From a virus (taxonomy: Duplodnaviria > Caudoviricetes), in IMG/VR virus record IMGVR_UViG_3300024331_000070, positions 3,615 through 67,614 of that record: 64,000 bases of DNA. One strand, given 5' to 3'. The position numbers and the translations under genes were made by a program. The notes beneath the pieces were generated by a model, which worked only from the letters and a program-made list of their open reading frames with translations, was not told where the DNA came from and searched no databases. Each line of letters starts with the position of its first letter. The first letter of the stretch is position 1. Of the stretch, positions 10,846 through 34,598 are shown one piece after another.

Positions 10846-11166
10846 TTATTTCCTCATGCTGGGTGGGACGTAGGTCGGCGCAGCCACGACAACCGATGGA
10901 ATAGTCGGATCGGAGGCGAGTCGCTGGAGATCGGGCGCCGCGGACGACGTGATCTCGATCGGCTTCACGCCGGGAATGACCCCGGCCGTCTGCACGACCT
11001 TGCTGTCGCTGTGGATGAACAATCCCCAAAGAAGCGGGACGAGCGTCGCTGCGGCACCAGCAATCGTGGTCGCCGTGCTCGAATTTATCAGCCCGTTCGT
11101 GGCCGCAGCGGAGCCGATCAGGCCAACTCCTGTGGTGATCCACGAAATCCATGTGTTTTGGTTCAT
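10846..11166 (-). CDS. Putative holin
   Basis: Two N-terminal hydrophobic segments; two genes upstream of the endolysin. Confidence 0.6.
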   Translation of the reverse strand: MNQNTWISWITTGVGLIGSAAATNGLINSSTATTIAGAAATLVPLLWGLFIHSDSKVVQTAGVIPGVKPIEITSSAAPDLQRLASDPTIPSVVVAAPTYVPPSMRK

Positions 11167-12051: not shown

Positions 12052-12308
12052 TGAGGCTGGGCCTCCGGGTGGGCTTCGGTCTTAGGCAGCTTTGCCTCAG
12101 CCTCGGCGAGCTTCTTCTTCAGGCTGGCGATCTCCGCCAAGAACTGCGTCGCATAGGCCTGCGCCTGTTCGCTGTCGGAGAGGAAGCGGAAGCGCTGGGC
12201 TTGGCAGACGCCGAGCTGGACGGCAGGGTCGAGTGGAGGAAGTTGCTGGGCCAGGGCTGGGGTGCCAAAGCCACACAGCGTAAGGATGATCCACTTTTTC
12301 ATTGCCAT
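12048..12308 (-). CDS. Exported coiled-coil protein (spanin-like?)
   Basis: Signal peptide MKKWIILTLCGFGTPALA; EIASLKKKLAEAEAKL. Confidence 0.6.
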   Translation of the reverse strand: MAMKKWIILTLCGFGTPALAQQLPPLDPAVQLGVCQAQRFRFLSDSEQAQAYATQFLAEIASLKKKLAEAEAKLPKTEAHPEAQPQ

Positions 12309-14215
12309 GTCACCAATGCTGCAGCAGCGGGAGTTTTGGGCTGCTTCCATGCGCCGCCTAAATACATCCAGAGCTGACTGTTTGTCGTGTCTACGTAGAT
12401 CGGCACGTAACCGGAACGCGCTGTCGGCACCCCCGTCGGCGTACCAGCTCCAGACGAGACATACATAAATCCGTCCGTGGCATTGGTGGCGATTGAGCCA
12501 AGCCCGACGGCGACGGTTCCAGTGTTCGTGCTGCCTTGGACGACGCCTCCGATATTCAACGAATTGGCGGTCCCGGCCGCAGCGGTGTCGATATTATAAC
12601 CAATGATGATATTGGCGCTGCCGGTCGTTAAAGAGGCGCAAGTGCTGCCCCCGATGCAGACGTTCTGATTTGCGCTGGTAACCGCTGGGGCCGCGTTATA
12701 GCCAATGGCCACGTTGGTCGATCCGTCGTGAATCGCCATGAGCGCCTGAAATCCGACGGCGACATTATTATTACCGTTGTGGAGCGAATTTCCCGGCATG
12801 ACGAACGCGGTGCCGAGACTCGAAGCGCCAACCGATGTATTTCCAGATCCGGTATTTGGCACGCTGCCATTCGCAGGCTCGGCGCCGTCGTCGCCATATT
12901 GAGACTGGAACCCAACCGCGGTGTTGTTCGATCCGCCTGTATTGTAGACCCCGGAGACGCTGCCTACCGAAGTGTTGCCAGTACCGAGACCATTGAAAAG
13001 GCCGCCCTCGAATCCGAGGCCAGTATTATTGCTTGCGGTCGTCTGGCCGTTCAAGGCCGACTGCCCCAGCGCCACGTTTCGGTTTCCTGAAATATGCAAC
13101 TGCATAGCCTGAAAACCGAGCGCCATGTTCTGGGATGCGGTCGTGTTGGAATTAAGCGCCTGGAAACCCATCGCAATGTTCGAGCCACCGGTCGTATTGG
13201 CCGTCATCACGTTCGAGCCGATCGCGACGTTCTGCGTGCCGGTAGTATTCGCTGCTAGCGTTTCGAACCCTAAGCCGATGTTGTCCGTACCGGTTGTATT
13301 GGCACCCAGATTAAAGAAACCCAGCGCAGTGTTGTTGCCGCCGGTCGTGTTGGCGGCGAGGTTGGAGCCTCCAAGAGACGTGTTGAAATTTCCCGTGGTG
13401 TTGTGCGAAAGACCACTCAATCCTACGGCGGTATTCTGGGTTCCGGTTGTATTGGCCGCCAGCGCCAAAGACCCTATTGCGACGTTATTGCTGGCGGTCA
13501 TGTTGGCGGCCAGGGCATTCGAGCCAATGGCCACGTTGTCGCTGCCGGTCGTGTTGACCGCAAGGCTGGAGGTCCCTACGGCGACATTCGTCCCGCCTGT
13601 TGTATTGGCCTGCAGCGCCTCGAACCCGACGGCGGTGTTGGATGCCCCGGTTGTGTTTGCGCCCAGGGCATTGAAGCCGATGCCTGTGTTCTGGCTGGCC
13701 GTGGTATTCGCGTTAAGGGCTGAGGCGCCGATTCCGGTGTTGAACGATCCAGTCGTGTTGGTGGCGAGGGCGCCAAAGCCAAATCCAGCGTTCTTCGAGC
13801 CTTCGCTGTTGCTGGCAAGGGCATCCCACCCAAAGGCACTGTTGCTCGCTCCGGAGGTCGTGCCTTTGAGAGCCTGGAAACCGACGGCTGTGTTCTGAAT
13901 AGCACCTGTTGTGAGGACGCCTGAAAGAGAAAGGTATCCTAGAGCGGTGTTGTTATAGAACGCCGCCACGGTCTGAGAAACGAGCGAGTTCTTACCTATC
14001 CCTATACTGGCGCCGCTTGCGGTGGAATCGATCGGGGTCGTGATGAGACCGCCCCCGGTCGCAGCCTGAACAAATGCCGTAGATGCCGCTTGGTTATTGT
14101 TTGTTCCTAGTGGCGCAGTTGGAACGATACAGTTTGGGTTAGCTGGGCCGCATCCCTGAGCAATAGCTAAGGAGGATTGCAGAAGGACGGCAACGGCCAC
14201 AAGAAAACGTCTCAT
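12299..14215 (-). CDS. Tail-fibre/adhesin-like protein with YadA-head-type 14-aa repeats and a signal peptide
   Basis: Start MRRFLVAVAVLLQSSLAIA-Q after AGGAAG; many NTAVGxxALxxNTTG repeats; C-terminal ATNATDGF...DTTNSQLWMYLGGAWK. Confidence 0.85.
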   Translation of the reverse strand: MRRFLVAVAVLLQSSLAIAQGCGPANPNCIVPTAPLGTNNNQAASTAFVQAATGGGLITTPIDSTASGASIGIGKNSLVSQTVAAFYNNTALGYLSLSGVLTTGAIQNTAVGFQALKGTTSGASNSAFGWDALASNSEGSKNAGFGFGALATNTTGSFNTGIGASALNANTTASQNTGIGFNALGANTTGASNTAVGFEALQANTTGGTNVAVGTSSLAVNTTGSDNVAIGSNALAANMTASNNVAIGSLALAANTTGTQNTAVGLSGLSHNTTGNFNTSLGGSNLAANTTGGNNTALGFFNLGANTTGTDNIGLGFETLAANTTGTQNVAIGSNVMTANTTGGSNIAMGFQALNSNTTASQNMALGFQAMQLHISGNRNVALGQSALNGQTTASNNTGLGFEGGLFNGLGTGNTSVGSVSGVYNTGGSNNTAVGFQSQYGDDGAEPANGSVPNTGSGNTSVGASSLGTAFVMPGNSLHNGNNNVAVGFQALMAIHDGSTNVAIGYNAAPAVTSANQNVCIGGSTCASLTTGSANIIIGYNIDTAAAGTANSLNIGGVVQGSTNTGTVAVGLGSIATNATDGFMYVSSGAGTPTGVPTARSGYVPIYVDTTNSQLWMYLGGAWKQPKTPAAAALVTWQ

Positions 14216-14229
14216 TGAATTCTTCCTGA

Positions 14230-15741
14230 TCAAGGCAGCACCGCGGCTCCGCCGTAGTTTGTGAAAGAGTTGGATGACAACACCACACCACCATGCGCGA
14301 TCGGATGGCAGCGCACGGTGTCTCCCACCTGCGGGGACATCGACATCGCGATAACCCCGCCGCCATTGCCAGCATCGATGATGCCGCTGATCGTCCCGAT
14401 CTGCTCCAAGGTCTGACCAGACTTGATCAGGCTGATCTGTCCGCCCGGTTTGATGCAGTGGGTGAAGTTCCTGTTTGCTGCGACGGTCAAGTCTGGCATC
14501 GAGATTTGGCTTGAGCCTGGCACGACCGTCGTTCCGTCCACAGGAAGATCGAGATTGAGCGAGGCGCCGATCGGAATGGACGTGCCGCCGCCTCCATTGA
14601 ATATCGAGTTCGCTATCGACAGCAGGTCGGTCGGAAAACTGATGTTGAGATTTATCGTCGGAGGATAGTTCACCGAGACATTCGGCGCATTGAATGTCAC
14701 GCCGGAATAGAAGGCCTGTCGGGGCGCGCAGATCGCCATCTGCATGCTGCCGCCGGTATAGCGCAGCGTGTCGACGCCGGAGCACTCGTTGAGGCCGTTG
14801 TCGATCGTCGTGTCCGTGAAGTCGACCTCGGTGAGAAGCTTGTCGACCTCGGATGCGAAGAAATGCGAGCCGGATACGATGACCAGCGGCGATTGAGAAG
14901 GAACGAACTCGCTCACGGTAACGTTCTTCAGCGTCGCCTGCGCAGTTCCCTGAACCAGCAGGAATTGGTGTGACTTGAATAGTGGATCGTTTGGCCCCGG
15001 ACCGTCTGTCGATCGTCGAGCATTCGGATTGTCCAGCATCGTGACGTTCTCTATGTAGATGGATTCGGAGAACGGCACCGGAGAGAATCCGTCGATCGGA
15101 TAGATGCGAGCCGCGCCGGCGAGGATGGGTGGTTGCGCGGACGCTTCCGGGAACGTGTCGCTGTGCGCATGCGCCAGCGGTCGGTCGAGAGTGATCACGG
15201 CGCCATTGACAGACGCAATCTTGGCGTAATCGAAATAGCGCGCGTTGGGCGGGTATCCCCCTTCGATCTGCTGATTGTAGGAGTAAACGACTGCCCATTT
15301 CCCCGGCACGAAGCTGGCCGCGTTGGTGGCATCCTTGAGCGTGACAGAGGTCGCGCCGACCGCCGCCGCCTGAATGAAAATGTTGATCGTCGGTATATGC
15401 AGCGGCGCGTCGATCGCCTCGGTCTCGAACAAGCTGCGATTGATGATGAGCGGATACGCGGCGGCGGAACCTGACGTGGCAAAGGATGCCATGTTCTGTA
15501 GGCTGGCCCCGTTGCCGAGAACCTTCAGATTGCGAATGCCCCACGTCCACCGATTGCTGGTGTACATGTAGCAGGCGCCAGCCCGCAGGTTGATCGTCAG
15601 CGGAGACGTGTTTGTTGCCTGCGTTGAGATCAGGCTGTTGCGCATAGCCAGAAGCGCCGACGTATCGTCCGCTATGCAATTGCCGGCAGCGCCGAATTGC
15701 TCTGGAGTGACGACGGTTGGCGCCGAAGCGCCGTCACTCAT
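14230..15741 (-). CDS. Tailspike-like parallel beta-helix protein (pectate-lyase-3-like start)
   Basis: VTPEQFGAAGNCIADDTSAL...; ATG overlaps the upstream TGA. Confidence 0.75.
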   Translation of the reverse strand: MSDGASAPTVVTPEQFGAAGNCIADDTSALLAMRNSLISTQATNTSPLTINLRAGACYMYTSNRWTWGIRNLKVLGNGASLQNMASFATSGSAAAYPLIINRSLFETEAIDAPLHIPTINIFIQAAAVGATSVTLKDATNAASFVPGKWAVVYSYNQQIEGGYPPNARYFDYAKIASVNGAVITLDRPLAHAHSDTFPEASAQPPILAGAARIYPIDGFSPVPFSESIYIENVTMLDNPNARRSTDGPGPNDPLFKSHQFLLVQGTAQATLKNVTVSEFVPSQSPLVIVSGSHFFASEVDKLLTEVDFTDTTIDNGLNECSGVDTLRYTGGSMQMAICAPRQAFYSGVTFNAPNVSVNYPPTINLNISFPTDLLSIANSIFNGGGGTSIPIGASLNLDLPVDGTTVVPGSSQISMPDLTVAANRNFTHCIKPGGQISLIKSGQTLEQIGTISGIIDAGNGGGVIAMSMSPQVGDTVRCHPIAHGGVVLSSNSFTNYGGAAVLP

Positions 15742-16364
15742 TTTCCCGCGAGAGTCCAGTTCGATCCATTGTACCAGACGAGCAGCTTGAGGGCGCCCCC
15801 GCCTCCGGTCACATTCGTCCCGAATGTGGTGCAGGTGGTATCGGCGCAATTGGCTGCGAGTCCATCGGTCAGGTAAGTGACCGTTCCGGCCGTTGCCGTC
15901 GGCAATGAGGCGAAAGCAACGCCCGTCGAGAGATGCCCGAGGCCGCCCACCACGCCGTTGAAAGACGCCAGATTGTTGGCTGCGGTAGAGAGATTGAAAT
16001 TTTGCGTGTTGCCGTTGTTCTGGAACTGCACAACCCCACTGGAGGAACTTGTCAGTTTGGTCCCATTACCCCAGATATAGGTTCCACCGTTAGGAATCTG
16101 GATGCTTCCATTGGCTCCGCCTAAAAGAATGGAAGATTGTACGGTAAAGACACCACCAACTGTAACTGCTCCAGACGCGCCAGCGGTCTTCGTCAGTCCG
16201 GCATCGCAGCCGGGCACGCCGTTGTTGTTGAACAGCACCCCCGTCGTCGATGTGCACCCTGAGATAACCGTAGAGCCGATGACGAGGGAGGAAGAGCCAC
16301 CCATGGTCTGGGCATTGGCGGCGCCACACAGCAGGACCGCAAGGAAATAGAGAAACCAGCGCAT
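15738..16364 (-). CDS. Fibre-like accessory protein with signal peptide
   Basis: MRWFLYFLAVLLCGAANA-Q; C-terminal FASLP...YLTDG...VTGGGG...WYNGSNW fibre module. Confidence 0.75.
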   Translation of the reverse strand: MRWFLYFLAVLLCGAANAQTMGGSSSLVIGSTVISGCTSTTGVLFNNNGVPGCDAGLTKTAGASGAVTVGGVFTVQSSILLGGANGSIQIPNGGTYIWGNGTKLTSSSSGVVQFQNNGNTQNFNLSTAANNLASFNGVVGGLGHLSTGVAFASLPTATAGTVTYLTDGLAANCADTTCTTFGTNVTGGGGALKLLVWYNGSNWTLAGK

Positions 16365-16371
16365 GGCGGGC

Positions 16372-16758
16372 CTACTGAATCTTGTAGAAGACGACATTGA
16401 CGGTCGCCGTGCCGCTCTGTGAGATCACCACGACGTTCGAGAGCGGATTGACCGTGGCGTAGTAGGGCACGTTCGTTGCGACGGGGATTCCGACCGATGT
16501 CGTCGGGTTGGTCCCGTCATCCCGGATGCGGATGGCGTTCGATTCCGGAACGATGAAGGCGTAGAACGCGCCAGCGGGAATGCCGCCGCTGCAAGTCGAG
16601 ATCGAGACCGCGGTCGTTACCGAGAGTTGGCAATATCCGAGGCTGATGAGCGGGGACTGAAACGTCCAGGCCTTCATGGGAAGGGATTGCGCGAATGCCG
16701 CGCAGGTCATCCATAGCGCAGCGCCAATCGCGCCCGCGGCAGCGAGCCACTTTCGCAT
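16372..16758 (-). CDS. Small beta-rich virion-accessory protein with signal peptide
   Basis: MRKWLAAAGAIGAALWMTCAAFA-Q; IRIRDDGTNPTTSVG. Confidence 0.75.
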   Translation of the reverse strand: MRKWLAAAGAIGAALWMTCAAFAQSLPMKAWTFQSPLISLGYCQLSVTTAVSISTCSGGIPAGAFYAFIVPESNAIRIRDDGTNPTTSVGIPVATNVPYYATVNPLSNVVVISQSGTATVNVVFYKIQ

Positions 16759-16777
16759 TTTCATGACTCCGTATTGG

Positions 16778-17123: not shown

Positions 17124-19064
17124 TCACCCCATGATTTCTGAGAGCTCGACGGTCGAACCGCTGTTGGCGCTCGGATAAGTCAGCGTCGCGCCACCAGCAA
17201 TCTTGCCCTGGAAATTGTAGGTGACCGCTGTAGTCACGCCAGGCGCATCCCAGGCGAGAATCGATGCGGGCACCGTCTGGCTCGCGCTGGTGCTGATGGG
17301 GTTTCCGATCAGCGTGCTCGACCTTGCGAATTGCAGGAATGCCAGCGCCGCTCCATTGGTCACGCTCCCATGAGAGAGCAGGCGGATGAGGTTGGGTGCA
17401 GACGTTGGCGTGATGGCACAGGTTTGACCACTAGAGAGGTCCGCAAACGTCGCGCTTGTGGTGGTGCCAGAGCTGGTGGTCGAACAGATCGGCGCGACCT
17501 GGACCACATCCCCAGGCTTGCGACATTGATTCGGAGACAGGCAGGACTGCAATGTCGTTGGCGCGCTCGCCCAGGTGCCGGCGGTAGCAAGTCCGGAGCC
17601 GTAATCGGCATAGCCGACGATGCGAATGGCGTCATTGCTGACAGCGGAGGCGGTATAGAGCGTCCCCGCAGATGTTGCCCCAGCGGTGATGCCGGTGCCG
17701 GCTTTCTGGATCGTCTCCCAGCCGGCGCAAGGATAGATAGCGCCCGTTGAAATCGAGCACGTCGCGACACCGAGAACAGGCGTCCCGGAATTGTAGGCGA
17801 CGAATATCCAGACACGGAACGGGACGTTGCTCGAGGAGGTCCCGAGGCTCGCCCCGGACGGGATGGTGATGGAGAGCCCGCCGGCCGGGATTGCCCATTT
17901 ACTCGCACCGGAGGTCAGCGTGGTGTCGCGGAACGACAGTTCGGGCGCATTGAGGACGATAGTGAGGGCGCTTGCACTTGCACTCGCCGACAACGACCCC
18001 TGCGAGGAATTGCAATCAAGCCACCACGTCCCGGTCGCGGAAGCGTTGGTGTAGACCCGGCACGTCGTCCCCTGCGGGATCGCGATACCGGTTCCAGATG
18101 CGACACCCTGGAAGTTGTCGGCCGCATCGGGTGTGACCGTGGCGACGCCGGCGAGGGCCTGCACCCAGAAGCCGAAGCCGTTGAAATAGGTGCTCGACGC
18201 CTTGCCCAGGGTATAGGTCAGGGGACCCGAGGCAATCCGCTGGGTGAGATGGAAATTACAGGTGACGGACTGGTTGGTGGAGTCCTGTGCCGTAGCCAGG
18301 ACGACCCGGGCATTGCCGGAGCCGTCGTCCCCCAGCGATGGGCCCCCACAGGATCCTGAATTGATGTTCTCCACCGCCATGGAGCCGAGGCCGAAGGCGG
18401 TGCGGCCGGCGGAGAGCGAGGCAGCCCCGACCACGGGGGTCATCGCAGAGGAGATGACGCCAATCGGCGCCGTGGTGCACGCGATGAGACTGTTGCCGGT
18501 GGAGTCGAAGCATACCCCCTGCCCTGCCGCGGCTGCGGCTGCAGGAAGCGGATCCGGCGGCGTCGAATTGGTGATGTTGGCGACGATCGCCCGCGATGAG
18601 CGCTCGTTGATCTGCTGGCCCTGCATGACCCCGGTGTCGAGGCCAGTTTCGGCCCCCTTGCCGAGGATCGCGATCGAGGCCTGGTTCTGGAGGGTGATTG
18701 CCTGGGTGAGGGGCAGCGTGCGGTAGATGGTGAGCGTCGACCCGGCGGGGATCGGTGTTCCCGAGGGATTGTAGGTGACGGTGCCACCGAGGCCCCACAG
18801 CGCGCCCTGGACGGGGGCGTTGAGCGATATCTGGTATTGAGTGGCGCCGGAACCTTGCGTCAGGACGGTCTCGTTGCCCGAGGAATCCGTGAGGATGACG
18901 GTGATATAGTTCGCCGCCACCCCGATGAAGTTGAAGGTGAAAGCGGTTTGCGAGCCGTTGCCGAGCGCGATAGTCTTGTTCGTGCTGCTGTTGACGGTCG
19001 AGTCCGCCGGCGTCGCCAGAACGAGCGCGACAACAGCAAGCAGCGTGCAGAGGAATCTGCGCAT
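17124..19064 (-). CDS. Tail fibre with T7 gp17-type N-terminal adaptor domain preceded by a signal peptide
   Basis: GNGSQTAFTFNF...GGTVTY...GSTLTIYRTLPLTQ...ETGLD; position directly after the largest ejection gene. Confidence 0.85.
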   Translation of the reverse strand: MRRFLCTLLAVVALVLATPADSTVNSSTNKTIALGNGSQTAFTFNFIGVAANYITVILTDSSGNETVLTQGSGATQYQISLNAPVQGALWGLGGTVTYNPSGTPIPAGSTLTIYRTLPLTQAITLQNQASIAILGKGAETGLDTGVMQGQQINERSSRAIVANITNSTPPDPLPAAAAAAGQGVCFDSTGNSLIACTTAPIGVISSAMTPVVGAASLSAGRTAFGLGSMAVENINSGSCGGPSLGDDGSGNARVVLATAQDSTNQSVTCNFHLTQRIASGPLTYTLGKASSTYFNGFGFWVQALAGVATVTPDAADNFQGVASGTGIAIPQGTTCRVYTNASATGTWWLDCNSSQGSLSASASASALTIVLNAPELSFRDTTLTSGASKWAIPAGGLSITIPSGASLGTSSSNVPFRVWIFVAYNSGTPVLGVATCSISTGAIYPCAGWETIQKAGTGITAGATSAGTLYTASAVSNDAIRIVGYADYGSGLATAGTWASAPTTLQSCLSPNQCRKPGDVVQVAPICSTTSSGTTTSATFADLSSGQTCAITPTSAPNLIRLLSHGSVTNGAALAFLQFARSSTLIGNPISTSASQTVPASILAWDAPGVTTAVTYNFQGKIAGGATLTYPSANSGSTVELSEIMG

Positions 19065-19089
19065 TGAGGCCTCTTTTCAGTGAAATCGA

Positions 19090-22000
19090 TCAGTGCGCGG
19101 GCGCGAGGCCCTTCTTGACCTTCTTCGCCTCGACGGCTTTGCGCTGGATGTCGTTCTCGCTGCCGTAGGCGTTCATCATCACGGTCTTCGCGGCCTGTTC
19201 GCGGGCCATGGTGATGAGTTTGTGCATGTGATCGGCGCGGGCGGCGGGAGCCATCTCATTGACGCCCGGCGTCTTCACGAAGTTGTCCAGCAGCATCTTG
19301 GCGGTGCGTCCGGCGATGCGCGCGAAGTCGTCGTGCTGCTGGTCGGTGAGTTCAACTCCGCGAATCTTGCGCGGGAACGGCGCCGACTTGAAGTGCAATT
19401 CGTCCATCATCCTCGCCACGGGATCGTTGGCGTAATTCTGCATCGCATTCGACGACGGGATCGGCTCGCCGAACTGATCGCGCCGCGGCATCAGGGATTG
19501 CGACCAGAACGGTATCTTGGCCTGTGCCTGCTTTTTGATTTCCTCGGAAAGCGAACTGGCGCGGGTCTCGCGCTGATAGGGATCGGCCAGCGGATTCGGA
19601 ACGAAACCGAACAGTGTCGGCGTATGGGTCACTTGGCCCAATCCAATCGAAAACGGCACCCAGTTCGTGACCATGTTGGCGACGTAGTTGTCGCCGTACT
19701 CCTCATGATGAAACACGGCGTCGATCATGTCCTTGACACCGCGCAGCCAGGTGTCGTCGAGCACCGATTTTTCGAACGCGGAAATCCAGGAGGCGACGAG
19801 ATTATGCTCCTTCTCGTTGCCCGGATCCGGAAATCCGTGCGTCGATTCGACGGCATTGGCAGCAATCGCCATCTGCATGCCGAGCATGCCGAGGCCTCGG
19901 TATGGAATCGTGACGTTGCCGATGGTGATGCTGTACGGGTTGTGCGTCAGGCGCCAGGCGCGCTGCTGCTGCGGATCGCTCGGGCCGGCGCCGGTCACGA
20001 GGCCTTCGGCGGCCATCTCTCCGACCATCCCCATCAACGCCGTGCTGGCGACAATGCTGGCCATCTGGGTATTGCGCGCCTCGACGCCGTTCTTGCCGGA
20101 TATATTGTCCCGCACCTTCTGCATGAAGAGGCCGGCTGGCGTGTTCTCGATCGCCGATGATGCGATCTGGGTGTCGATCTTGGTGAACGGCAGGATCAGC
20201 TTGGTGACGATATTATGGTTGGCGAACCGGCCGATCTTGGATTCGAGGCTCGCGTAGTCCGCGGGCGCCATGTAGAGGTCTTTGCGTGCCACCTTTACGG
20301 CAGCGTCCATCATCTCCGGCGTCGGCCGGTTGCCGAGATCGGCGACCCGGTTGACGAAATCGGTCCCACTCAGCCCCTCGCGCATCGCCTGCCGGTAGGC
20401 GAGTTTTGCGATTTCCTGTTCGTAGCGCACTGCGCTCGAAAACCCGTGAATGGCCCCGACTGCTTTTCCTGGATAGCCGATCACCTGGCCGATCTTGCCC
20501 GGGATGGGCGGAACGACGGGCTGGGACTCGAACAGGCTGGGCGGTTGCTCGCCGGGAAGATGCGGCGTGTTGCCGGTGCGCCAGCCCTCCCCGGCCGCCT
20601 TCCATCCCTCGCGCGACCCCTTGGCGAGCGCATAGATTTCCGCCCCAGCCTCTCCGAAGAAGATGCGACGCTCGTCCTGCAGTCGCGCCAGGGTAGCCGC
20701 AGTATCGATGCCGGCGGCAACCAGCGTCTTGGTAGGAGCCCACAGCGCCGTCAGGACATTGCCGACAAAGTACCTCGTATGCGTGACTGGCCCGGAGATC
20801 AGTGAGTTGACGTAGTAGTAAAGGACCGCCTGCTTGATCTTGCCGTTCGCCGTGTCGTGCACTAACTGCGAAATCTGCCGCGGCGATGTCAGGTTCGAGC
20901 CAAACCGCGCCATGTCCTGCAATTGAAACAGCGTCCGCCCGGTGTTGGCCTTGAGCCAGTCATTGAGCGTCGCCGCCACGTCGCTGCCGGGAATCTCCTC
21001 TCGAAAGGCCCTCAAAGCCCGACCGGCCTCCGCCGTCGCCTGGGACACCTTCCCCTGGATCATCTCGTGGCGGGCGATGGCTTCGGCGAGTTTAACGGTC
21101 GCGTCGATATCGCCGTCCTTGGCGGCGATCATCGCATCGCGGACGGTCGTGGCAGACTGGACGAGCAGCCTTCTGGCGGCCCGGATTTCCTCTACGTTGA
21201 ACGCTTCCCCGATCTTCTTGCGATCGAGCCATGCCGGGTCCATGCCCAAAGCATCGGCAAGCTCGATGGTCTGGCCATCGGAGAGAACGCCGCGGCGCTC
21301 TTCGAGGAAGTCGTTATTGTTGCGTGCGGCGGTCCGGATGACCGCATCCACGTCTTCGGGCTGGTTGAGCTTGTCGAGCCGGATGTTGCCGGCTTTGTCG
21401 ATCAGCGGGGTTCCGGGGTTTCGGAATCTGAGGTTTGCGCCGGCGGGGACTTCTCCTGCGCCCGCTGATGTTCCAGCGCCTTCACCCGCAGCTTGATTTC
21501 CGCCCGGCAGGACTGCTCCAGCTTGTGGATCAGGTCCACTTTCTCCGCCGACTGGCCGGGGCGCATTGCCATCACGATCAGGTTGCGGAGCTCCTGCCTC
21601 GCGCCGTCGAGTTTCATCTGCAACGTCTTTAAGTCTGGCATTCTCTTCATCTACCAGATTTGAGGCCGCTGCGCTATCTCGTTCGGCTTGGATATCTTCC
21701 GCCACGGGATGGGCGCGCTCGTGTGGAGTAGCTTCCGCGCGGGCCGCGTGCTCTTCGGCAAAGCCGGGGATGGTTTCCCGCTCCGGAGCGATCACTGTCC
21801 GTTCCGGCTCCGTGGCCAGCATCCGGTCGAATACGGCCCGGATGTCATCATTGATAGGCGACTTGAGCGCGAGAACGGTCTTGTAGATGCTGGTCAGCCA
21901 CGCCTTGAACTGGGCGAAGACGCGGGCCAGGGCCTTCGAGGGCGCGACGCCTTCCATGAGGTAGGTCTCAAACCCGCGGGCGAACTTCTCATGGGCGGCG

Positions 22001-24576
22001 CGAGCCTTCTTGCCGCGTTCTCCCGGCCATCCGGTGTTGAGGTCTTCGTGGCTTTCGATGCCGAGCCAATCGCGGACGGTCTTGGCGTCGGCTTTCACGT
22101 CTTCGGGCGCGGCCTCATGGGCGGCGTCGCGCATCATCTGTTCGAGGAAATCGTGCCCCGATTCGTGCAGGAAGGTCGAGGCGTTGGCGTCCTTGGCGAG
22201 CTTGAGGAGTCCGGGCTTGCCTTCGCCGCGGGGGAGGAAAGAGCCGAGGGCGTGCTGGAAAAGCTCGCTCGGCTCCTCGCCCGCAAGATACGCCCCGCGC
22301 TCCGGCTCGCCCTGCTCCTCGAACCATTCATTGGCCTTCTTCGCGCCCGGAAACTTGCGCTTGTTCCCCGTGAGGTACTTTTCCTCGAAAGCCTTCTCGA
22401 ATTCCGGTTGGCTGCCGAACTTGTAGTCCTCCGGGTTGATCTGCTTGGTGAAGTCGCGCGTCTTGTTCCATGCGCGCACTTCTTTCACCCAGGTTGCGTT
22501 TGGAACGTCGTTATAGTCGAGATCGGGGCCATGCTGGGTCCACTCGTTGCGCAGGACGGCTTCCTGCATGTCCTTTGTGGATACGATGCGCGGACCGTTG
22601 GCTTGGAACAACTCCCTCTGCTTCGCCTCATCCGAGAATAGCCCGATGTCCATCGGCTTCTGCGCAACACCCGGCTTCATCGGTTCGGCCGCACGCCGCT
22701 TCGCAAGATCGGATTCGCTGATGCGCTCGGTGCCGGGGAGGTTGGTCTGGCCTTCGCCTTCGCGTTCGGTGAATAGGTTGGGGCCGGGCGGGGCGGGGCG
22801 GCGCTGGAAAAACTCGCCCGACGCCATGAACGCCAGATCGTCCTTCGTCAGCAGTGAGCCGTCGGCCTGTTCGACGCCGGCCTCGGTCTGCGCTTCGTGC
22901 CACGCCTTTTCGAGGTCGGCGCGGTCCTCTTTCGACATGCTGCGGTATTGCTCGGCGGCCGAAACGAACTTGGGGGCTGAGGCGCCCTCGTTGCGGCGCG
23001 CGGCGGCGGCTTCCTTGCCTGCGGCCATGCGCTGCTGGAAATCATCGAGGGCGCGGGCCATCGTCGCCGGATTGGCGGCCCGCGCCACCTTGCGCCGTAT
23101 CTCCATGGCGCGGATTTCCGCACCCTCGCGGCGGTACAGTTCCTCCGGCGTCCCGAGCGCGCCCTTCATGCGCTCGGCCCGGGCGATGTAGCGGGCGGCG
23201 GTCAATTGGGCGGCGGCGGCGGCTTCCTCGGGCGGGCGCCCGGCGCGGACAAGCTGGGCACCGACATCGTGCGCAATGGTGGCGCGCTGGTCTTCGATCG
23301 ACTTGGAGGCTACCCCTTCCGCGGCACGTTCGGATGCAACTTGTGCCGCGCCAGGTTCAGCTTCTCTGGCTGGCGCGGCTTCTCCGGCCGGTGGTGCGGC
23401 TTCGGCCGGTGCCGTCCCGGCCACTTCGCTTGCGTTTGCGGGTTGGGTGGGTTGTTCGGCTGGTCCGCCATTGGCTTCCTCTGCCTTGCGGTAGGCGTCC
23501 TTGACGCTCGCGGACATCTCGACGAGCCGCGCTTCGGTCTCTTTCAGGTTGATGGCGGCGTTGGCGGGAATGGATTCTCCGCTCTCGAACGCCCTTCGCA
23601 GGATATCGCGGCGCTTGGTGAGCGCGTCGTATTCCTCGAACAGCTTGGGTTCGATCGCTCGGGCGGCGGCGTGCAAGTCGGGAGCGGCTGCCTGCGCCGC
23701 CTCGGGTATCGGAGGCATCCCCGGAACATCGTGCTCGACCGGGACAAGCCCCTTCCATCCGGCCTCGCCCTCCGGGCCGATGACGCCGAGGTCGCGGGCT
23801 TCGGCGAGAGGCGGGGGCACGAAGCCTTCAAGAATGCGCCGATTCCTCGCAGCCTCCTCTCTTGACAAGAACCGGACCGAGATGGGGCCGCCCTCTGCCT
23901 TCGATGCCCTGGCGCTGGCTACTTTGGCGGTTTCAACCGCCGTGCGCTCAGCCATCAATCCCTTCCCGTATGTTTTGGCACTTGGGACATAGGGCCTGAA
24001 ATTGAAGTCCGGGATGGCCTGCGGCACCGACGCGATTTCGCGGGCTAGTTGACTCGGCTTTCCGAGCCCGACCGCCTCCATGCCCTTTTCGAGGGCCGTA
24101 CCTTTGGTCTGCTCTCCCGCCTCAACGACGGCTTCCTGCGCCCCATGGAACAGCGCCGGGATTCCGTACATCGCGGTATTGACCGCAACCGCCCCTGACC
24201 GCAGCAGTGTCTCCGCATTAGCCTTCAAAAGGCTGTGCTGGCCCGCCACGTAATCGTTGAAGACGCCCTTCTTGCGAAGATGGTCCTTGGTTTCGTCCGA
24301 CATGCCCCATTTGCTGGCGTCTTCGTAAACCGAGGCTCCAAAGGCATGCATGATGCGGGCGAGCGAGGAATGCTTGGTGTCTCCGAATATCCAGTCTCCG
24401 ACCGGACCCGGCGCGATGGCTCCGGTCAGCGGGCGCTTCGGAGGCGTTTCGGGAAACGGTTCGTGCTGGTCCTCGGGAAACGGGTCGTGCTGTTCCGGCT
24501 GAGCGCCGCCCATCGATGCCGGCATGGCCGGCACTGGCATAAGAGCGCCGTTGTCCTCGAACGCGCGGTCGGTCAT
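19090..24576 (-). CDS. Large internal virion (ejection) protein, T7 gp16 position
   Basis: 1828 aa, helical; ANASTFLHESGH motif; synteny. Confidence 0.8.
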   Translation of the reverse strand: MTDRAFEDNGALMPVPAMPASMGGAQPEQHDPFPEDQHEPFPETPPKRPLTGAIAPGPVGDWIFGDTKHSSLARIMHAFGASVYEDASKWGMSDETKDHLRKKGVFNDYVAGQHSLLKANAETLLRSGAVAVNTAMYGIPALFHGAQEAVVEAGEQTKGTALEKGMEAVGLGKPSQLAREIASVPQAIPDFNFRPYVPSAKTYGKGLMAERTAVETAKVASARASKAEGGPISVRFLSREEAARNRRILEGFVPPPLAEARDLGVIGPEGEAGWKGLVPVEHDVPGMPPIPEAAQAAAPDLHAAARAIEPKLFEEYDALTKRRDILRRAFESGESIPANAAINLKETEARLVEMSASVKDAYRKAEEANGGPAEQPTQPANASEVAGTAPAEAAPPAGEAAPAREAEPGAAQVASERAAEGVASKSIEDQRATIAHDVGAQLVRAGRPPEEAAAAAQLTAARYIARAERMKGALGTPEELYRREGAEIRAMEIRRKVARAANPATMARALDDFQQRMAAGKEAAAARRNEGASAPKFVSAAEQYRSMSKEDRADLEKAWHEAQTEAGVEQADGSLLTKDDLAFMASGEFFQRRPAPPGPNLFTEREGEGQTNLPGTERISESDLAKRRAAEPMKPGVAQKPMDIGLFSDEAKQRELFQANGPRIVSTKDMQEAVLRNEWTQHGPDLDYNDVPNATWVKEVRAWNKTRDFTKQINPEDYKFGSQPEFEKAFEEKYLTGNKRKFPGAKKANEWFEEQGEPERGAYLAGEEPSELFQHALGSFLPRGEGKPGLLKLAKDANASTFLHESGHDFLEQMMRDAAHEAAPEDVKADAKTVRDWLGIESHEDLNTGWPGERGKKARAAHEKFARGFETYLMEGVAPSKALARVFAQFKAWLTSIYKTVLALKSPINDDIRAVFDRMLATEPERTVIAPERETIPGFAEEHAARAEATPHERAHPVAEDIQAERDSAAASNLVDEENARLKDVADETRRREAGAPQPDRDGNAPRPVGGESGPDPQAGAVLPGGNQAAGEGAGTSAGAGEVPAGANLRFRNPGTPLIDKAGNIRLDKLNQPEDVDAVIRTAARNNNDFLEERRGVLSDGQTIELADALGMDPAWLDRKKIGEAFNVEEIRAARRLLVQSATTVRDAMIAAKDGDIDATVKLAEAIARHEMIQGKVSQATAEAGRALRAFREEIPGSDVAATLNDWLKANTGRTLFQLQDMARFGSNLTSPRQISQLVHDTANGKIKQAVLYYYVNSLISGPVTHTRYFVGNVLTALWAPTKTLVAAGIDTAATLARLQDERRIFFGEAGAEIYALAKGSREGWKAAGEGWRTGNTPHLPGEQPPSLFESQPVVPPIPGKIGQVIGYPGKAVGAIHGFSSAVRYEQEIAKLAYRQAMREGLSGTDFVNRVADLGNRPTPEMMDAAVKVARKDLYMAPADYASLESKIGRFANHNIVTKLILPFTKIDTQIASSAIENTPAGLFMQKVRDNISGKNGVEARNTQMASIVASTALMGMVGEMAAEGLVTGAGPSDPQQQRAWRLTHNPYSITIGNVTIPYRGLGMLGMQMAIAANAVESTHGFPDPGNEKEHNLVASWISAFEKSVLDDTWLRGVKDMIDAVFHHEEYGDNYVANMVTNWVPFSIGLGQVTHTPTLFGFVPNPLADPYQRETRASSLSEEIKKQAQAKIPFWSQSLMPRRDQFGEPIPSSNAMQNYANDPVARMMDELHFKSAPFPRKIRGVELTDQQHDDFARIAGRTAKMLLDNFVKTPGVNEMAPAARADHMHKLITMAREQAAKTVMMNAYGSENDIQRKAVEAKKVKKGLAPAH

Positions 24577-28263: not shown

Positions 28264-31200
28264 CTACTCGCCAGGGCTCCACGTCGGGACCAACGCGAGC
28301 ACATTCATGGGAAACGGCTTCGTCTGCTGCGCCGCCACCATGCCCGGGCTCGCCTCCCATCCATTCCATGATTGCCAGTCATCGTCCACGTTGACATATT
28401 TATCCCCCGTAAAGAGCGGGAGTGCGGCGGAGGGAACGTTGGATTGCGGCACTTCCTGGATGTCGACGAGATTGGTCCAAGGCACTTCCTGCTGAAAGTC
28501 GAGGGCGGAAGCCACTGGCTGGTTGGCGCCGACCTGAACCCCGCGGCTCTTTTCCAATCGGATCGTTGCACCGTTGATCTTCTTGCGCTTGCCCTGGATG
28601 GTGCCCATGGACTGCATCTCCAGGTGCATCGCCTGCAACTGGGCAATGAAGGGCAGCCCGATGGTGACCGCGCTCGCGGGCGCCGGGAGCGTCACCGTGC
28701 CATTGGTCACGGTGGTCAAGGGAATCTCGGAACCATCGGCAATGCCGTACACCTGCATGCCTTCGAGGTGGAACAGGTTGGTAATCTCCGACACCGGGGT
28801 AGTGATGCTCCAGGTCCCCGGTGGCGCTGGAACTGGAAGCAGGTTCGGATCATTGGGGATGGTTTGAAGAATCGGCGCCGTGATCGAGGCGAGGACCTGC
28901 GATGGATTTGCCACCGAGGAAACGACGGCCTGACCACCTCCGATCCGAATCACATCTCCCGCCACGGTGTCGGCGAACACCGGCTGATCGGCATTGAAGG
29001 CGACGTTCTGCGACACGAAGGGGACGAGCGTTCCCCCGGCTCCATTCGGGTCGCTGATGGTGACATAGGTTCCCGGCGAGTAGCCTTCGCCTTGGGAAAC
29101 GATGGTGAATCCCGTGAGCACGCCGCCGGACTGCGTGAGCGTGATGACGGCACCCGAGCCGGTGCCCTGGGGATCGATGACTTGTGCCGCGGGATCGGTG
29201 TAGCCCTGCCCGGTGGTGGCGAGATAACCCCCGGTGATGTCCCCGGGACCTTCGGCCGCCATGGCGGACAGCGTTGCATTGGGCGTCGGCTGAGCAAGAG
29301 ACAGGCCGGCATCCACGCACCATGGATCTTCCGGCCCGAACCACAGCCGGTCGTCCATGCGTTCGATGTAGTACACCCACTGAGCGGGCCCGGGGATGTA
29401 GCGCTTGATCACAAAATACGGCGCATTCACCGGCGGCTCGGTCGCGACCTCATTGCCGACGACGAGGCCGTTGGTGTCATGCCTGGCCCAGCCCTTGAGC
29501 TTTTCTTCCTTGTCATAGGTGAACGACAGGAACTTCCCATCGCTGCGGGTCGCCCAGACGATCTTCCACGGGATCTGCGCCCAAGCCCAGGACACCAACG
29601 TAAAACCATCGAAGAGGTGATTGGACAGCACCGTCACGTCTTCGCCGGCATAGATATTGTTGAAGAAGTTGTACTGGAGGTCGCGGACGGTGTAGCCGAG
29701 CTGCTGGACGTAGAGGATATCGTAGTTGATCCGGAGCGGCTTCACGGTGGGAGAGTAGCCGTTCGATTCCTGGGGCTGCGCGCTCTCCGAGGCCGGCGTC
29801 AGAGGAGACCCCGCACCACCGGCACCGGCGACCTGCCAGGTGTCCAACCCCGTACCGGCCAACAGTCCGCCTGGCATGGGGGTGAGCCACTGGACGCCGT
29901 TGACCTGGGTGCCCCATGGGGTGAGCGTGACCGCATCGTCATCTACCGGTGGGGTAGATGCATCGAAGTTCGTGTAAGCCCCGGTCTTCGAGGTCCAGAG
30001 CGTGTCCGGGTTGTTGATACTGTCAGCGTAGACCCGGCGCTGCTGGAAATAGTCTGCGACAGACGGATAGGTCCCGGTCTGCGGCCCGATGTCTGGCGTG
30101 AAGGCGGCACCCGTACCACCGCCGCCATCCGCGATCAGAATCGTGTCCGTGTCGACGTAGCCTTGGCCGCCGTTCTGCACGATGATGGCGACCACTGCGC
30201 CGGACACGACGACAGGCGCCAGCACGGCACCGGAGCCGGTTGCGCTGACCATGATCGCCGTGGTCGAGGCCTGGACATAGCCGGAGCCACCAGCGGTTTC
30301 CGTCGCGCTGATGACCTGCCCGCGCGCGAACGGATCGAGATGGAGCGGAGGCGACTTCACGGGATCGTTGAGGATGTTGGTGTTGACGAACTGCGTCCCG
30401 AAGGCGGAGCCGAGGTAACCGAACGCCGCCCCCACGGGGACCGGCGTATCGTATGAGGGGGGCGCTTGGTACACGTTGTAATAGGCCGCCCCGATCACCG
30501 AGGCCCAGGTGATCGTGTGTGATCCCTGCACAAGAGAAATGTTGTTGGAATTGGTTATGTAGGCGATGGGCGAGGCAATCGACTCTTCGCCCGTGGTTCG
30601 ATCGACGGCGGTGACGCAATAGGCAAATTGGGTGGAAACGGTGGCAGTGACCGAGGTGGTCGCGGTGCATGTAGCCGGCGCATCGATGCCCGCAGCGAAC
30701 GTGGTCTGCGTGAACGTCCAGCTGTTCGCAGCGAGCCGCGCGAGATCGATCGGCGGGTATTCCGTCCCGGTCTGCTGGTTGACACAGCACAAACTCATCA
30801 CGTCGGCTGACTGCACGACCTTGAGGTAAGGCAGGTCTGCGAGTGTATAGGGCGAATCGTAGCTCGTGAATACCCGCGAGAATGTCCCGCCCGAGCTGTA
30901 CGCGCCGTACGCCGACGAATTGACCGCATTCCCGAAGGTGTCCGTCAGGGTGAACGTGCTTGCGGTCGCGTTCTGGACGATGAAGGTGCGCGAATTGATC
31001 TGCGTGATGCCGACGAAGCCGGCCGCAAACACCCAATCACCGTTAGCAAAGCCATGGGCTGGGGCGGTTGCAACGGCCGGGTTGGCATTGGTAACCCCCG
31101 TCGCCGCCACTGGGCTTTCCAGCACGTAACCGCCATTTGCGATCACACGCATGTAGGTCGCGCCGAGAGCGTTGGCGCCGAACTCCAGCAGATAGGATTG

Positions 31201-31437
31201 GAAGATCGAGAACTGAAATCTGACCAGCTTCGGCGGAATGGAAGATGGCGAAGCAGGCGTCAGAGATTGCCCGACCCACATCGTTCCGGCTCGGGAAGAA
31301 GCCGGACCGCGATAGGAGACGAAGCAGTTCCGCATGACGGACGCGCCGCCGTAGAACCATTCGCCGTCGGTTCTGCCCCACAGGGATGGGGACAGCTCGC
31401 CCTTGTTGAAAGTCGGCTTGATCGAGGTGATGGGCAT
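28264..31437 (-). CDS. Tail tubular protein B (nozzle, T7 gp12-like) with inserted domains
   Basis: TFNKGELSPSL.GRTD start; YFQQRRVYA; GWARHDT; YIERM. Confidence 0.88.
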   Translation of the reverse strand: MPITSIKPTFNKGELSPSLWGRTDGEWFYGGASVMRNCFVSYRGPASSRAGTMWVGQSLTPASPSSIPPKLVRFQFSIFQSYLLEFGANALGATYMRVIANGGYVLESPVAATGVTNANPAVATAPAHGFANGDWVFAAGFVGITQINSRTFIVQNATASTFTLTDTFGNAVNSSAYGAYSSGGTFSRVFTSYDSPYTLADLPYLKVVQSADVMSLCCVNQQTGTEYPPIDLARLAANSWTFTQTTFAAGIDAPATCTATTSVTATVSTQFAYCVTAVDRTTGEESIASPIAYITNSNNISLVQGSHTITWASVIGAAYYNVYQAPPSYDTPVPVGAAFGYLGSAFGTQFVNTNILNDPVKSPPLHLDPFARGQVISATETAGGSGYVQASTTAIMVSATGSGAVLAPVVVSGAVVAIIVQNGGQGYVDTDTILIADGGGGTGAAFTPDIGPQTGTYPSVADYFQQRRVYADSINNPDTLWTSKTGAYTNFDASTPPVDDDAVTLTPWGTQVNGVQWLTPMPGGLLAGTGLDTWQVAGAGGAGSPLTPASESAQPQESNGYSPTVKPLRINYDILYVQQLGYTVRDLQYNFFNNIYAGEDVTVLSNHLFDGFTLVSWAWAQIPWKIVWATRSDGKFLSFTYDKEEKLKGWARHDTNGLVVGNEVATEPPVNAPYFVIKRYIPGPAQWVYYIERMDDRLWFGPEDPWCVDAGLSLAQPTPNATLSAMAAEGPGDITGGYLATTGQGYTDPAAQVIDPQGTGSGAVITLTQSGGVLTGFTIVSQGEGYSPGTYVTISDPNGAGGTLVPFVSQNVAFNADQPVFADTVAGDVIRIGGGQAVVSSVANPSQVLASITAPILQTIPNDPNLLPVPAPPGTWSITTPVSEITNLFHLEGMQVYGIADGSEIPLTTVTNGTVTLPAPASAVTIGLPFIAQLQAMHLEMQSMGTIQGKRKKINGATIRLEKSRGVQVGANQPVASALDFQQEVPWTNLVDIQEVPQSNVPSAALPLFTGDKYVNVDDDWQSWNGWEASPGMVAAQQTKPFPMNVLALVPTWSPGE

Positions 31438-32264
31438 CAGTACGACACGCCGTCTGGATAGCCGATCGATTGCCAGCCGGCAATGAATGGGCCGCCGCCC
31501 CATCCAGCGCTGCCCCAGCCCCAACCAGAGCCGGTGTTGCGCACCAGCATCCAATCAGGGATGTAGTCGACGGCGGTGATCCCCTCATTCCCGTCCGATG
31601 CGCGCGCCGAATTGATGAGCCCAACGGCAAGCTGAATACGCATCTGCATCAGAGCTTTGTCGCCCGAGATCGGAAGGCAGAACCACGCCGCGAGAGTCCC
31701 GATCACCGCATTCTGCAACGCAGAATCCCACAAATCCGGATTTGCGATGCGCCCGGTGTAGACCGCTTGTGCCTTGCAAGCGTTGGACAATATCACTTTG
31801 ATCTGATTGCCATCCGCATCGGTATCGATCGACGGCACGAACGGCATCGATGTATTGACCAGGGGCTGATTGGAGATACCCACGTTGGTCATGAGCGGCG
31901 CCTGACCGGGGATCGGCAGATTCGGCCGCGGGATGACGAAGCGCGTCAGCAGACAGTCGTTCGGGTACGCATAGCTGTAGCGCCACGGAACGGGCGGCGT
32001 CGGATTGAGATTGCCATTGGAATCATAGCCGGAGGGATTCTCCGGTGTTCCCACGGCCGCCTTGAGCAGGGTCAGTTCCCGTTGTAGCCGTGCCGAATTC
32101 CAATGCGCGGCACGAAACACCGCATCGACCTGTGTCTGATAGGTGCGGCTCGCGACTTGGGCGGCGGTGTTGTTCGGAGGCGATGGCGGGTTGATGCCGG
32201 TCACGCTCGTCCGCGCCGAAATTTGGTCTAAGGCCATGTTGACCAAATCGACTGCGCTTGTCAC
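31437..32264 (-). CDS. Tail tubular protein A (adaptor, T7 gp11-like)
   Basis: VDLVNMALDQI...HWNSAR...WRYSYAYPNDCL. Confidence 0.85.
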   Translation of the reverse strand: MTSAVDLVNMALDQISARTSVTGINPPSPPNNTAAQVASRTYQTQVDAVFRAAHWNSARLQRELTLLKAAVGTPENPSGYDSNGNLNPTPPVPWRYSYAYPNDCLLTRFVIPRPNLPIPGQAPLMTNVGISNQPLVNTSMPFVPSIDTDADGNQIKVILSNACKAQAVYTGRIANPDLWDSALQNAVIGTLAAWFCLPISGDKALMQMRIQLAVGLINSARASDGNEGITAVDYIPDWMLVRNTGSGWGWGSAGWGGGPFIAGWQSIGYPDGVSY

Positions 32265-34157: not shown

Positions 34158-34598
34158 CTACTGCTGATAGCCGTAGGAGTTCACATCGACCGCCGATGCG
34201 GTGCCGTCCGCAGTCGTGGTCACGGTGATCGCTGTGTTGGCAGCGCTCGCGGGGATGCAGGGACTGTAGTTGTGCGTGATGGAAGCGCCAGAGGCGGCAG
34301 AGGCGAGCTGATAGACCATCGACGATCCGATGAGCCCCGCAACGGTGATCGGGCCGACCGCAGCAGTGCCACCGATAGCCGAAACATTCCAACCGCAGAT
34401 GTATGTGGTCTTATTTGTCACGGCCGCGAGCGTGCCCACCACGGCGCCCGTGGTGCCCGTCGAGTTACCGGTGATGACGGTTTGAGCCAGAGGCCCATAG
34501 GCGGAGGGTCCTGGCGGGTTGACCTGCGCCAGGAGTGTTCCGAGCGCGCCCGCACCGAACAGGGCGGCGAGACCACAAGCAATCAGCATTCTTCGCAT
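34158..34598 (-). CDS. Beta-rich virion-accessory protein with signal peptide
   Basis: AAGGA ribosome site; [25 protein letters not shown]; Thr/Ala/Gly-rich. Confidence 0.75.

Follow-up and report, generated by a model that had tools for sequence, protein, structure and literature searches.

The tail fibre of a tailed phage (Duplodnaviria; Caudoviricetes) appears to be made as a precursor in which a predicted Sec-type signal peptide stands directly in front of the domain by which gp17-type fibres dock on the tail. The gene (17124..19064, minus strand; 646 amino acids plus stop, according to the list of open reading frames (ORFs), its translation and a search of the genome) lies in a window of 64,000 nucleotides (nt), positions 3,615-67,614 of the IMG/VR record IMGVR_UViG_3300024331_000070, and all coordinates below are positions in this window. 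Judged from the sequence and its relatives, export of the fibre by the Sec system and cleavage of its leader are very probable; for the whole route, which includes incorporation of the exported fibre into the virion, we put the chances as even. Signal-peptide features and their conservation, the register with leaderless relatives, the docking fold, the covariation of Cys pairs and the uniqueness of the gene are directly supported. From these we infer export, cleavage, disulfide formation and joining of the fibre to the particle at or after lysis.

The start ATG (19064-19062) is preceded at a 5-nt spacer by a ribosome binding site, AAGAGG (19070..19075, minus strand; sequence reading). Apart from it, no in-frame ATG, GTG or TTG occurs ahead of codon 49, which rules out an internal start for a leaderless fibre. 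A sequence-only reading of this DNA had stated that no in-frame ATG lies at the beginning of the docking domain, which is correct and extends to the alternative start codons. Gene starts in metagenomes are often called too far upstream, and the leader might in principle be an artefact of a wrong start call, or a hydrophobic N-terminus that arose by chance, on an ordinary cytoplasmic fibre. The good ribosome binding site and the lack of another start speak against such an artefact, as does a leader of the same architecture in about 100 independently assembled relatives, including those on Bradyrhizobium and Pseudolabrys chromosomes, and we regard it as hardly credible.

Codons 1-22 (18999..19064, minus strand) look like a Sec-type signal peptide, as predicted from sequence features and homologs. 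MRR is followed by a 14-residue hydrophobic core, FLCTLLAVVALVLA, and then by TPADS, with Ala at -3 and Ser at -1 of a predicted signal peptidase I cut after Ser22. The best 12-residue Kyte-Doolittle mean of the core is 3.08. In an AlphaFold (AF2) model built from 52 sequences, with a mean predicted local distance difference test score (pLDDT) of 82.8 and values above 90 for residues 250-646, the leader forms a separate helix that passes into a low-confidence linker (residues 17-24). Two other kinds of signal were rejected. The Tat consensus is S/T-R-R-x-F-L-K with a weakly hydrophobic core; 54 of the 102 leaders found in the family hold RR, none of the 102 matches [ST]RRxF[LIVM], variants with KR, TR, QR or AR are frequent, and the cores are of high hydrophobicity. 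As for a lipoprotein signal, the leader contains a thirteenth Cys, Cys6, which lies in R-F-L-C and is shared by just 4 of 56 relatives with a leader, and there is neither a Cys at +1 nor a lipobox, L-[AS]-[GA]-C. Since the Tat consensus and the lipobox are both absent, Sec is the likely route. Three N-x-S/T motifs (NSS, NKT and NGS) stand within the first 16 mature residues (residues 25-38), and more are found along the Ser/Thr/Asn-rich chain.

The leader is a property of the family. In a survey of 118 alignable homologs it is present in 102, as an extension of 10-43 residues (median 25) with a mean of 2.3 Lys or Arg in the n-region. The cut site was scored in 100 of these. The residue at -1 is Ala in 89, Ser in 8, Gly in 2 and Thr in 1, and that at -3 is Ala in 80, Val in 12, Gly in 3, Ser in 3, Thr in 1 and Pro in 1; thus all 100 have A/S/G/T at -1, and 99 have A/V/G/S/T at -3. 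The first domain residue, +1, is Thr in 98 of 100. The leader itself drifts fast, 5 of its 22 residues being changed relative to a protein 97% identical overall, with the n-, h- and c-regions kept. This is the expectation for a signal peptide, on which selection acts through its properties and not through its exact letters.

The position of the leader is fixed to the residue. The predicted cut is precisely where all 16 leaderless homologs begin, with MT[VI]N, and in the two that were read at the DNA level there is no leader-coding sequence upstream, but stop codons or the preceding gene instead. From residue 23 onward (TVNSSTNKTIALGNGSQTAFTF) the fibre matches PHROG tail-protein profiles (families 13893 and 1640) from profile position 2, and tblastn aligns it with pelagiphage fibres and with Carin-1. 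In the cultured phages Carin-1 (Dpo31) and HTVC010P the gene starts 3 nt before the aligned stretch, which puts residue 2 of their fibres opposite residue 23 of this one. The claim of the sequence-only reading that a 22-residue leader directly precedes the docking domain is borne out by this register. Thus the domain starts at residue 23, unlike the norm of its class, which is residue 2, and only cleavage would bring it to the very start of the mature chain. An identical N-terminus would then result from the signal peptidase cut in leader-bearing forms and from Met removal in leaderless forms. On a tree of the N-terminal domain, the leader state changes at least six times, at least four of them on well-supported branches.

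The same features bear on whether the leader is removed at all. It might stay uncleaved and anchor the fibre in the inner membrane, either for pick-up by tails or particles or to keep it inactive until lysis. The strength of the hydrophobic core (3.1 in rounded form) would suit such an anchor, and signal-anchor or signal-arrest-release (SAR) domains occur in phage lysis proteins; the endolysin of this phage (9343..10572, minus strand), in which profile matches show a GH108 domain, a peptidoglycan-binding domain and a CHAP-like domain, itself begins with a membrane helix that is strongly hydrophobic. An anchor, however, would need neither the small residues found almost universally at -3 and -1 nor the Thr at +1 directly before the domain, and leaderless relatives begin exactly at +1. 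Moreover, with its positive N-terminus inside, the body of an anchored protein would be periplasmic anyway. An uncleaved leader is therefore quite improbable, and Sec export followed by cleavage after Ser22 remains the preferred reading of the N-terminus.

The N-terminal domain behind this leader is, according to the predicted model, a gp17-type tail-docking domain by fold. Residues 23-160 (18585..18998, minus strand; profile and predicted-fold match) would form a beta-sandwich and a neck helix of the gp17/Carin-1 Dpo31 D1 type. For fold comparison, residues 23-159 of the model were used. The closest structure is the fibre of Carin-1 in its solved tail assembly (8ck1_B), with Z 12.7, a root-mean-square deviation (rmsd) of 3.0 over 126/126 residues and 34% identity, and Foldseek gives the same chain an E of 2.7e-8. 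It is followed by the fibres of LME-1 (9efk, Z 11.1), the T7 tail (7ey9, Z 9.3), cyanophage P-SCSP1u (8i4m, Z 8.8), the T7 proximal half fibre (8dsp, Z 8.7) and the T7 gp17 N-terminus (7boz, Z 8.4). When the family profile was searched against the PDB, Dpo31 was found at E 3.6e-23, with profile positions 21-161 on chain residues 1-130. The gp17-type identity that the sequence-only reading had assigned to this domain is thus upheld by fold, with Z 8.4-9.3 for the T7 structures and Z 12.7 for Carin-1. A complex prediction for the adaptor with fibre residues 23-165 scored 0.00, which is no verdict and no evidence either way.

Two further domains follow. The middle domain (residues 231-355; 18000..18374, minus strand) resembles the T4 gp9/gp10-type fold and the N-terminal fold of CBA120 TSP4 at Z 9.6-11.7, and the Cys pairs 239/269 and 335/351 lie within it. 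The tip (residues 519-646; 17127..17510, minus strand) is a TNF/C1q-like jelly roll (Z about 13, rmsd 2.0-2.6), a fold common to trimeric lectins, namely the Pgp3 C-domain, PLTL, BC2L-C and Bd2734. In branched tailspike systems, gp9/gp10- or TSP4-like domains carry further spikes; by analogy, the middle domain could be a platform for other leader-bearing fibre proteins.

The mature fibre contains 12 Cys, at 185/196, 239/269, 335/351, 436/446, 508/514 and 527/549. The sequence-only reading had seen in them six local pairs; the flanking residues are exactly as it described them, and the pairing is supported by co-occurrence in an alignment of 65 homologs having the same distal body. Both members of the pair 185/196 are present in 39 of these homologs and neither in 26; the corresponding numbers are 37 and 28 for 239/269, 23 and 42 for 335/351, 37 and 28 for 508/514, and 11 and 54 for 360/369, a pair absent from this fibre, and a lone partner is found in none of these cases (phi 1.00). 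A second pair absent from this fibre, 278/308, is complete in 14, half present in 1 and missing in 50 (phi 0.96). For 436/446 both Cys occur in 39, one only in 5 and neither in 21 (phi 0.85), and for 527/549 the counts are 2, 1 and 62 (phi 0.81). Fisher p is 1e-12 to 1e-19 for seven pairs and 1.4e-3 for 527/549, the latter resting on 2-3 sequences. Cys columns that are not partners mostly give phi of 0.64 or less, and the neighbouring 436/446 and 508/514 columns give 0.79-0.94 with each other. Cys is therefore gained and lost pairwise, as in a disulfide-bonded extracytoplasmic protein, which supports the prediction of disulfides from sequence. Among homologs with the same body, 8 of 8 leaderless ones lack every pair and have 0-3 Cys, whereas the 56 leader-bearing ones have 4-17 (Mann-Whitney p 2e-6 for the Cys number, with data points that are not independent). 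In the wider family of 2682 hits at E <= 0.001, represented at 50% clustering by 33 leader-bearing and 92 leaderless sequences, there are 1.07 Cys per 100 residues in leader-bearing and 0.65 in leaderless representatives (p 6e-4).

Whether this gene encodes the fibre of the virion can be judged from its conservation and its place in the genome. The docking domain is the best-conserved part of the gene: its identity is 71% among relatives with a leader and 69% among those without, and none of 117 sequences lacks it. Of these 117, 70 have the distal body and 47 the tip; in some that bear a leader, collar, pectate-lyase-like or Gly-rich modules take the place of the body or tip. As read from these sequences, this pattern is the usual mosaic of virion receptor-binding proteins. 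The viral record, of which the window is most, is 67.6 kilobases (kb) long and is rated complete by CheckV. The fibre protein and the family profile find no other match in this genome, even at E <= 1, and the gene is thus the only gp17-type docking-domain gene of the phage. From its uniqueness, the conservation of the docking domain and the same gene order in a Bradyrhizobium chromosome, where the fibre also bears a leader, we argue that it is the virion's fibre.

On the other hand, the fibre might be exported and cleaved, and yet the exported pool might serve a role in the envelope. There it could block superinfection by binding or masking the glycan receptor, it could keep progeny off debris, or it could leave the cell as a free lectin, and particles would take an unexported fraction of the fibre or none. 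The lectin-type TNF/C1q-like tip, which is also found in the secreted bacterial proteins Pgp3, PLTL, BC2L-C and Bd2734, suits such a role, as do the adaptor and nozzle, which remain cytoplasmic, and other proteins of the fibre module, which bear leaders even in phages whose primary fibre is leaderless. Against this role, the docking domain is the most conserved part of the gene, equally so in leaderless relatives, and the gene is the only one in the genome with such a domain. The gene moreover lies inside the late operon, its ATG 25 nt past the stop of the gene for an 1828-residue internal virion protein, and no promoter-like or terminator-like site is seen between the two genes. An unexported precursor would bear a hydrophobic 22-residue extension at an N-terminus that solved tail complexes resolve from residue 2 onward, and the Cys pairs of such a fraction would stay reduced in the cytoplasm. 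A non-virion envelope role is the main rival to incorporation of the exported fibre into the virion, and we consider it unlikely.

For the fibre of the virion, the following route is proposed. The gene would be transcribed as part of the late virion operon, and the unfolded chain would be exported through SecYEG. Signal peptidase I would cut after Ala-Asp-Ser22, and the new N-terminus, Thr-Val-Asn-Ser, would be that of leaderless relatives after loss of Met. In the periplasm, the chain would fold and trimerise, and the host Dsb system would close up to six local disulfides. If export is real, it follows that docking is impossible in the intact cytoplasm, where DNA-filled, fibreless particles would meanwhile be assembled. 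Fibre and particle would meet only once the holin (10846..11166, minus strand; Phage_holin_10, Pam3 gp28 family, by Pfam) opens the inner membrane, or in the newly formed lysate, and the N-terminal beta-sandwich would then dock at the junction of adaptor and nozzle. Attachment to particles in vitro is known for P22 tailspikes and for T4 long tail fibres, and joining of a fibre after lysis is therefore physically plausible. In its fullest form, the proposal is an assembly split over two compartments, in which the fibre is exported, cut and disulfide-bonded in the periplasm and joins fibreless particles at holin opening, the other leader-bearing proteins of the fibre module are perhaps co-exported and hang on the gp10-like domain, and the route has been switched several times by gain or loss of the leader at a fixed position; for this combination we would give slightly less than an even chance.

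Several observations weigh against this route or against parts of its evidence. A Pfam search of the fibre finds no family at E <= 0.01, including Phage_T7_tail, the profile that the sequence-only reading had proposed for a check of the docking domain; the link to T7 gp17 is therefore one of fold and not of sequence. With respect to Cys, only 4-6 phylogenetically independent pairs are available for the association of the leader with four or more Cys, and the association is not significant in them. Many leader-bearing relatives of the Bradyrhizobium type have only 0-3 Cys, so disulfides cannot be the sole or general reason for export. Conversely, 22 of the 92 leaderless representatives of the wider family hold at least 6 Cys, and Cys richness alone was rejected for this reason as a general marker of export. 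The leader appears, from these comparisons, to permit disulfides, while Cys richness requires no leader. Finally, the adaptor (31437..32264, minus strand; tail tubular protein A type, phrog_394, from a profile match and reading of the N-terminus) and the nozzle (28264..31437, minus strand; tail tubular protein B type, phrog_376, from a profile match), both needed for fibre binding, have no leader, the nozzle if it is read from MPITSI. The proposed route for this reason needs the mixing of two compartments, which to our knowledge is known for no tailed phage, and little time passes between holin triggering and dispersal of the lysate.

Some leaderless fibres of the wider family (P0112, P0118 and others of the 22) have their 6-17 Cys in other distal modules. 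These Cys might be oxidised after release, or might bind metal.

The fibre gene belongs to a same-strand tail module of T7-like order, in which adaptor, nozzle, two internal virion proteins and fibre are followed by further fibre-like genes and by holin and endolysin. The internal virion protein gene directly upstream of the fibre gene (19090..24576, minus strand; PHROG profiles and sequence reading) encodes 1828 residues without Cys, and the two internal virion proteins together (1828 and 819 residues; 19090-27032, minus strand) are free of Cys over a total of 2647 residues. Capsid proteins of temperate Pseudomonas- and Bordetella-type podophages share about 40% identity with that of this phage. 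Among sequencing runs, the best match to the sequence is a soil metagenome, which may be the source of this DNA, and no RNA run is listed among the matches. Hints to the host come from named homologs in Bradyrhizobium and Pseudolabrys; the Pseudolabrys locus has the look of a rearranged remnant. A scan of genome collections for prophage hosts gave two loci only, a 3.9-kb contig binned to a metagenome-assembled genome of Steroidobacteraceae and a distant locus of Sterolibacterium, neither of which is usable for host assignment. In a relative that is a Bradyrhizobium prophage (L009), the opposite strand carries an Acyl_transf_3 gene just past the fibre module (14363-15457 of that locus), which is likely an O-antigen-modifying gene of lysogenic conversion.

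Downstream of the fibre gene, other proteins have signal-peptide-like N-termini as well. They are a 130-residue protein (16372..16764; cut site AFAQ-S, 2 mature Cys), a 208-residue protein (15738..16364; ANAQ-T, 4 mature Cys) and a 638-residue fibre-repeat protein (12299..14215; AIAQ-G, 4 mature Cys; PHROG 23837, 6002 and 4636), all on the minus strand. The repeats of the last match tail fibres of many cultured phages. Leader-bearing proteins of the fibre module have even numbers of Cys, in contrast to the internal virion proteins, which have none. A leaderless gene for a 503-residue beta-helix protein like a tailspike lies at 14230..15741, and the real gene downstream of it starts at 14215. 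A mechanically listed ORF of 1126 residues (12299-15679) was rejected as an artefact, its first half overlapping the real gene 14230-15741 in another frame. Between the tail and head genes, a 146-residue protein (34158-34598, minus strand) has a leader with a lipobox-like L-I-A-C motif and no PHROG match; to judge from this motif, it may be a phage lipoprotein. In relatives whose primary fibre is leaderless (L002 6010-8109; L003 12808-13932 and neighbours), leader-bearing, Cys-rich fibre-like proteins are encoded downstream, with the N-terminal motif CPT.P.GD.SN..AST.FVQ. Because such relatives keep leader-bearing fibre-like proteins, export of accessory fibres would be independent of that of the primary fibre.

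Assembly of tailed phages is, in textbook accounts, wholly cytoplasmic. A virion fibre matured in the periplasm would, if true, be a new assembly route. It would also explain structural disulfides in phage fibres, would add the Sec, signal peptidase and Dsb systems to the host factors on which phage infectivity depends, and would mean that such fibres are to be expressed with export or in oxidising strains for engineering or structural work. What is contributed here is a residue-exact register with natural leaderless relatives, a docking match to solved structures including those of T7, the covariation of Cys pairs and the lack of a second docking fibre. The case is readily testable, with a predicted mature N-terminus that is exact to the residue, natural leaderless controls and related prophages in culturable Bradyrhizobium, for instance in the strains PMVTL-01 and RT9a.

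The phage proteins known to depend on Sec serve in lysis or lysogenic conversion, or are coat proteins of filamentous phages. Among known virion proteins, pIII and pVIII of the filamentous (Ff) phages have cleavable Sec signal peptides, and the disulfides of pIII are formed by host Dsb. The Ff phages differ in that their assembly takes place at the membrane and they leave the cell by extrusion, without lysis, and their proteins have no kinship in sequence or fold to this fibre. We know of no tailed phage that uses a route with a Sec-exported virion protein. No published account of an exported tailed-phage fibre was found in the literature, from whose search most subscription journals lay outside, so that its absence is not proven. 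Phage proteins that do use Sec are signal-peptide and SAR endolysins, the T4 antiholin RI, spanins and the products of signal-peptide genes of Porphyromonas phages (PMC8385771, PMC6139136, PMC10367356). They resemble the present fibre as late proteins that use host Sec and signal peptidase, whereas they serve in lysis or modify the host and are not receptor-binding proteins of the virion. The paper on Porphyromonas phages mentions signal peptides for capsid, spanin and unknown genes, and none for tail fibres (PMC10367356).

With respect to the tip, the mosaic adhesive trimer fibre Bd2734 of Bdellovibrio (PDB 8okw), PLTL, BC2L-C and Pgp3 have the same fold at Z about 13 and are secreted, trimeric binders of glycans or surfaces. 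They differ from the fibre in being cellular proteins without a tail-docking domain, at 8-13% identity.

The nearest counterparts are the fibres of podophages. The fibres of T7 (gp17; 7boz, 7ey9, 8dsp), LME-1, P-SCSP1u and Kp9 have been solved on tails and show the same docking fold, at Z 8.4-11.1 with about 110-123 residues aligned, and the order of the tail module, adaptor, nozzle, internal virion proteins and fibre, is the same in T7-like phages. These fibres are leaderless cytoplasmic proteins, whereas here the domain stands behind a predicted signal peptide. The Carin-1 tailspike Dpo31 (PDB 8ck1, 28lx) shares the beta-sandwich and neck helix as well as the position of its gene after those of large internal virion proteins, and its D1 domain is seen at the base of the virion in a cryo-electron microscopy map (PMC13317679). 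It starts with Met-Thr-Val, without a leader, and continues into a depolymerase beta-helix in place of the gp9/gp10-like domain and TNF-like tip found here. Collectively, the fibre gene is a variant of the gp17/Dpo31-D1 podophage class, to which it belongs by fold, homology and gene position, and from which it differs by its leader.

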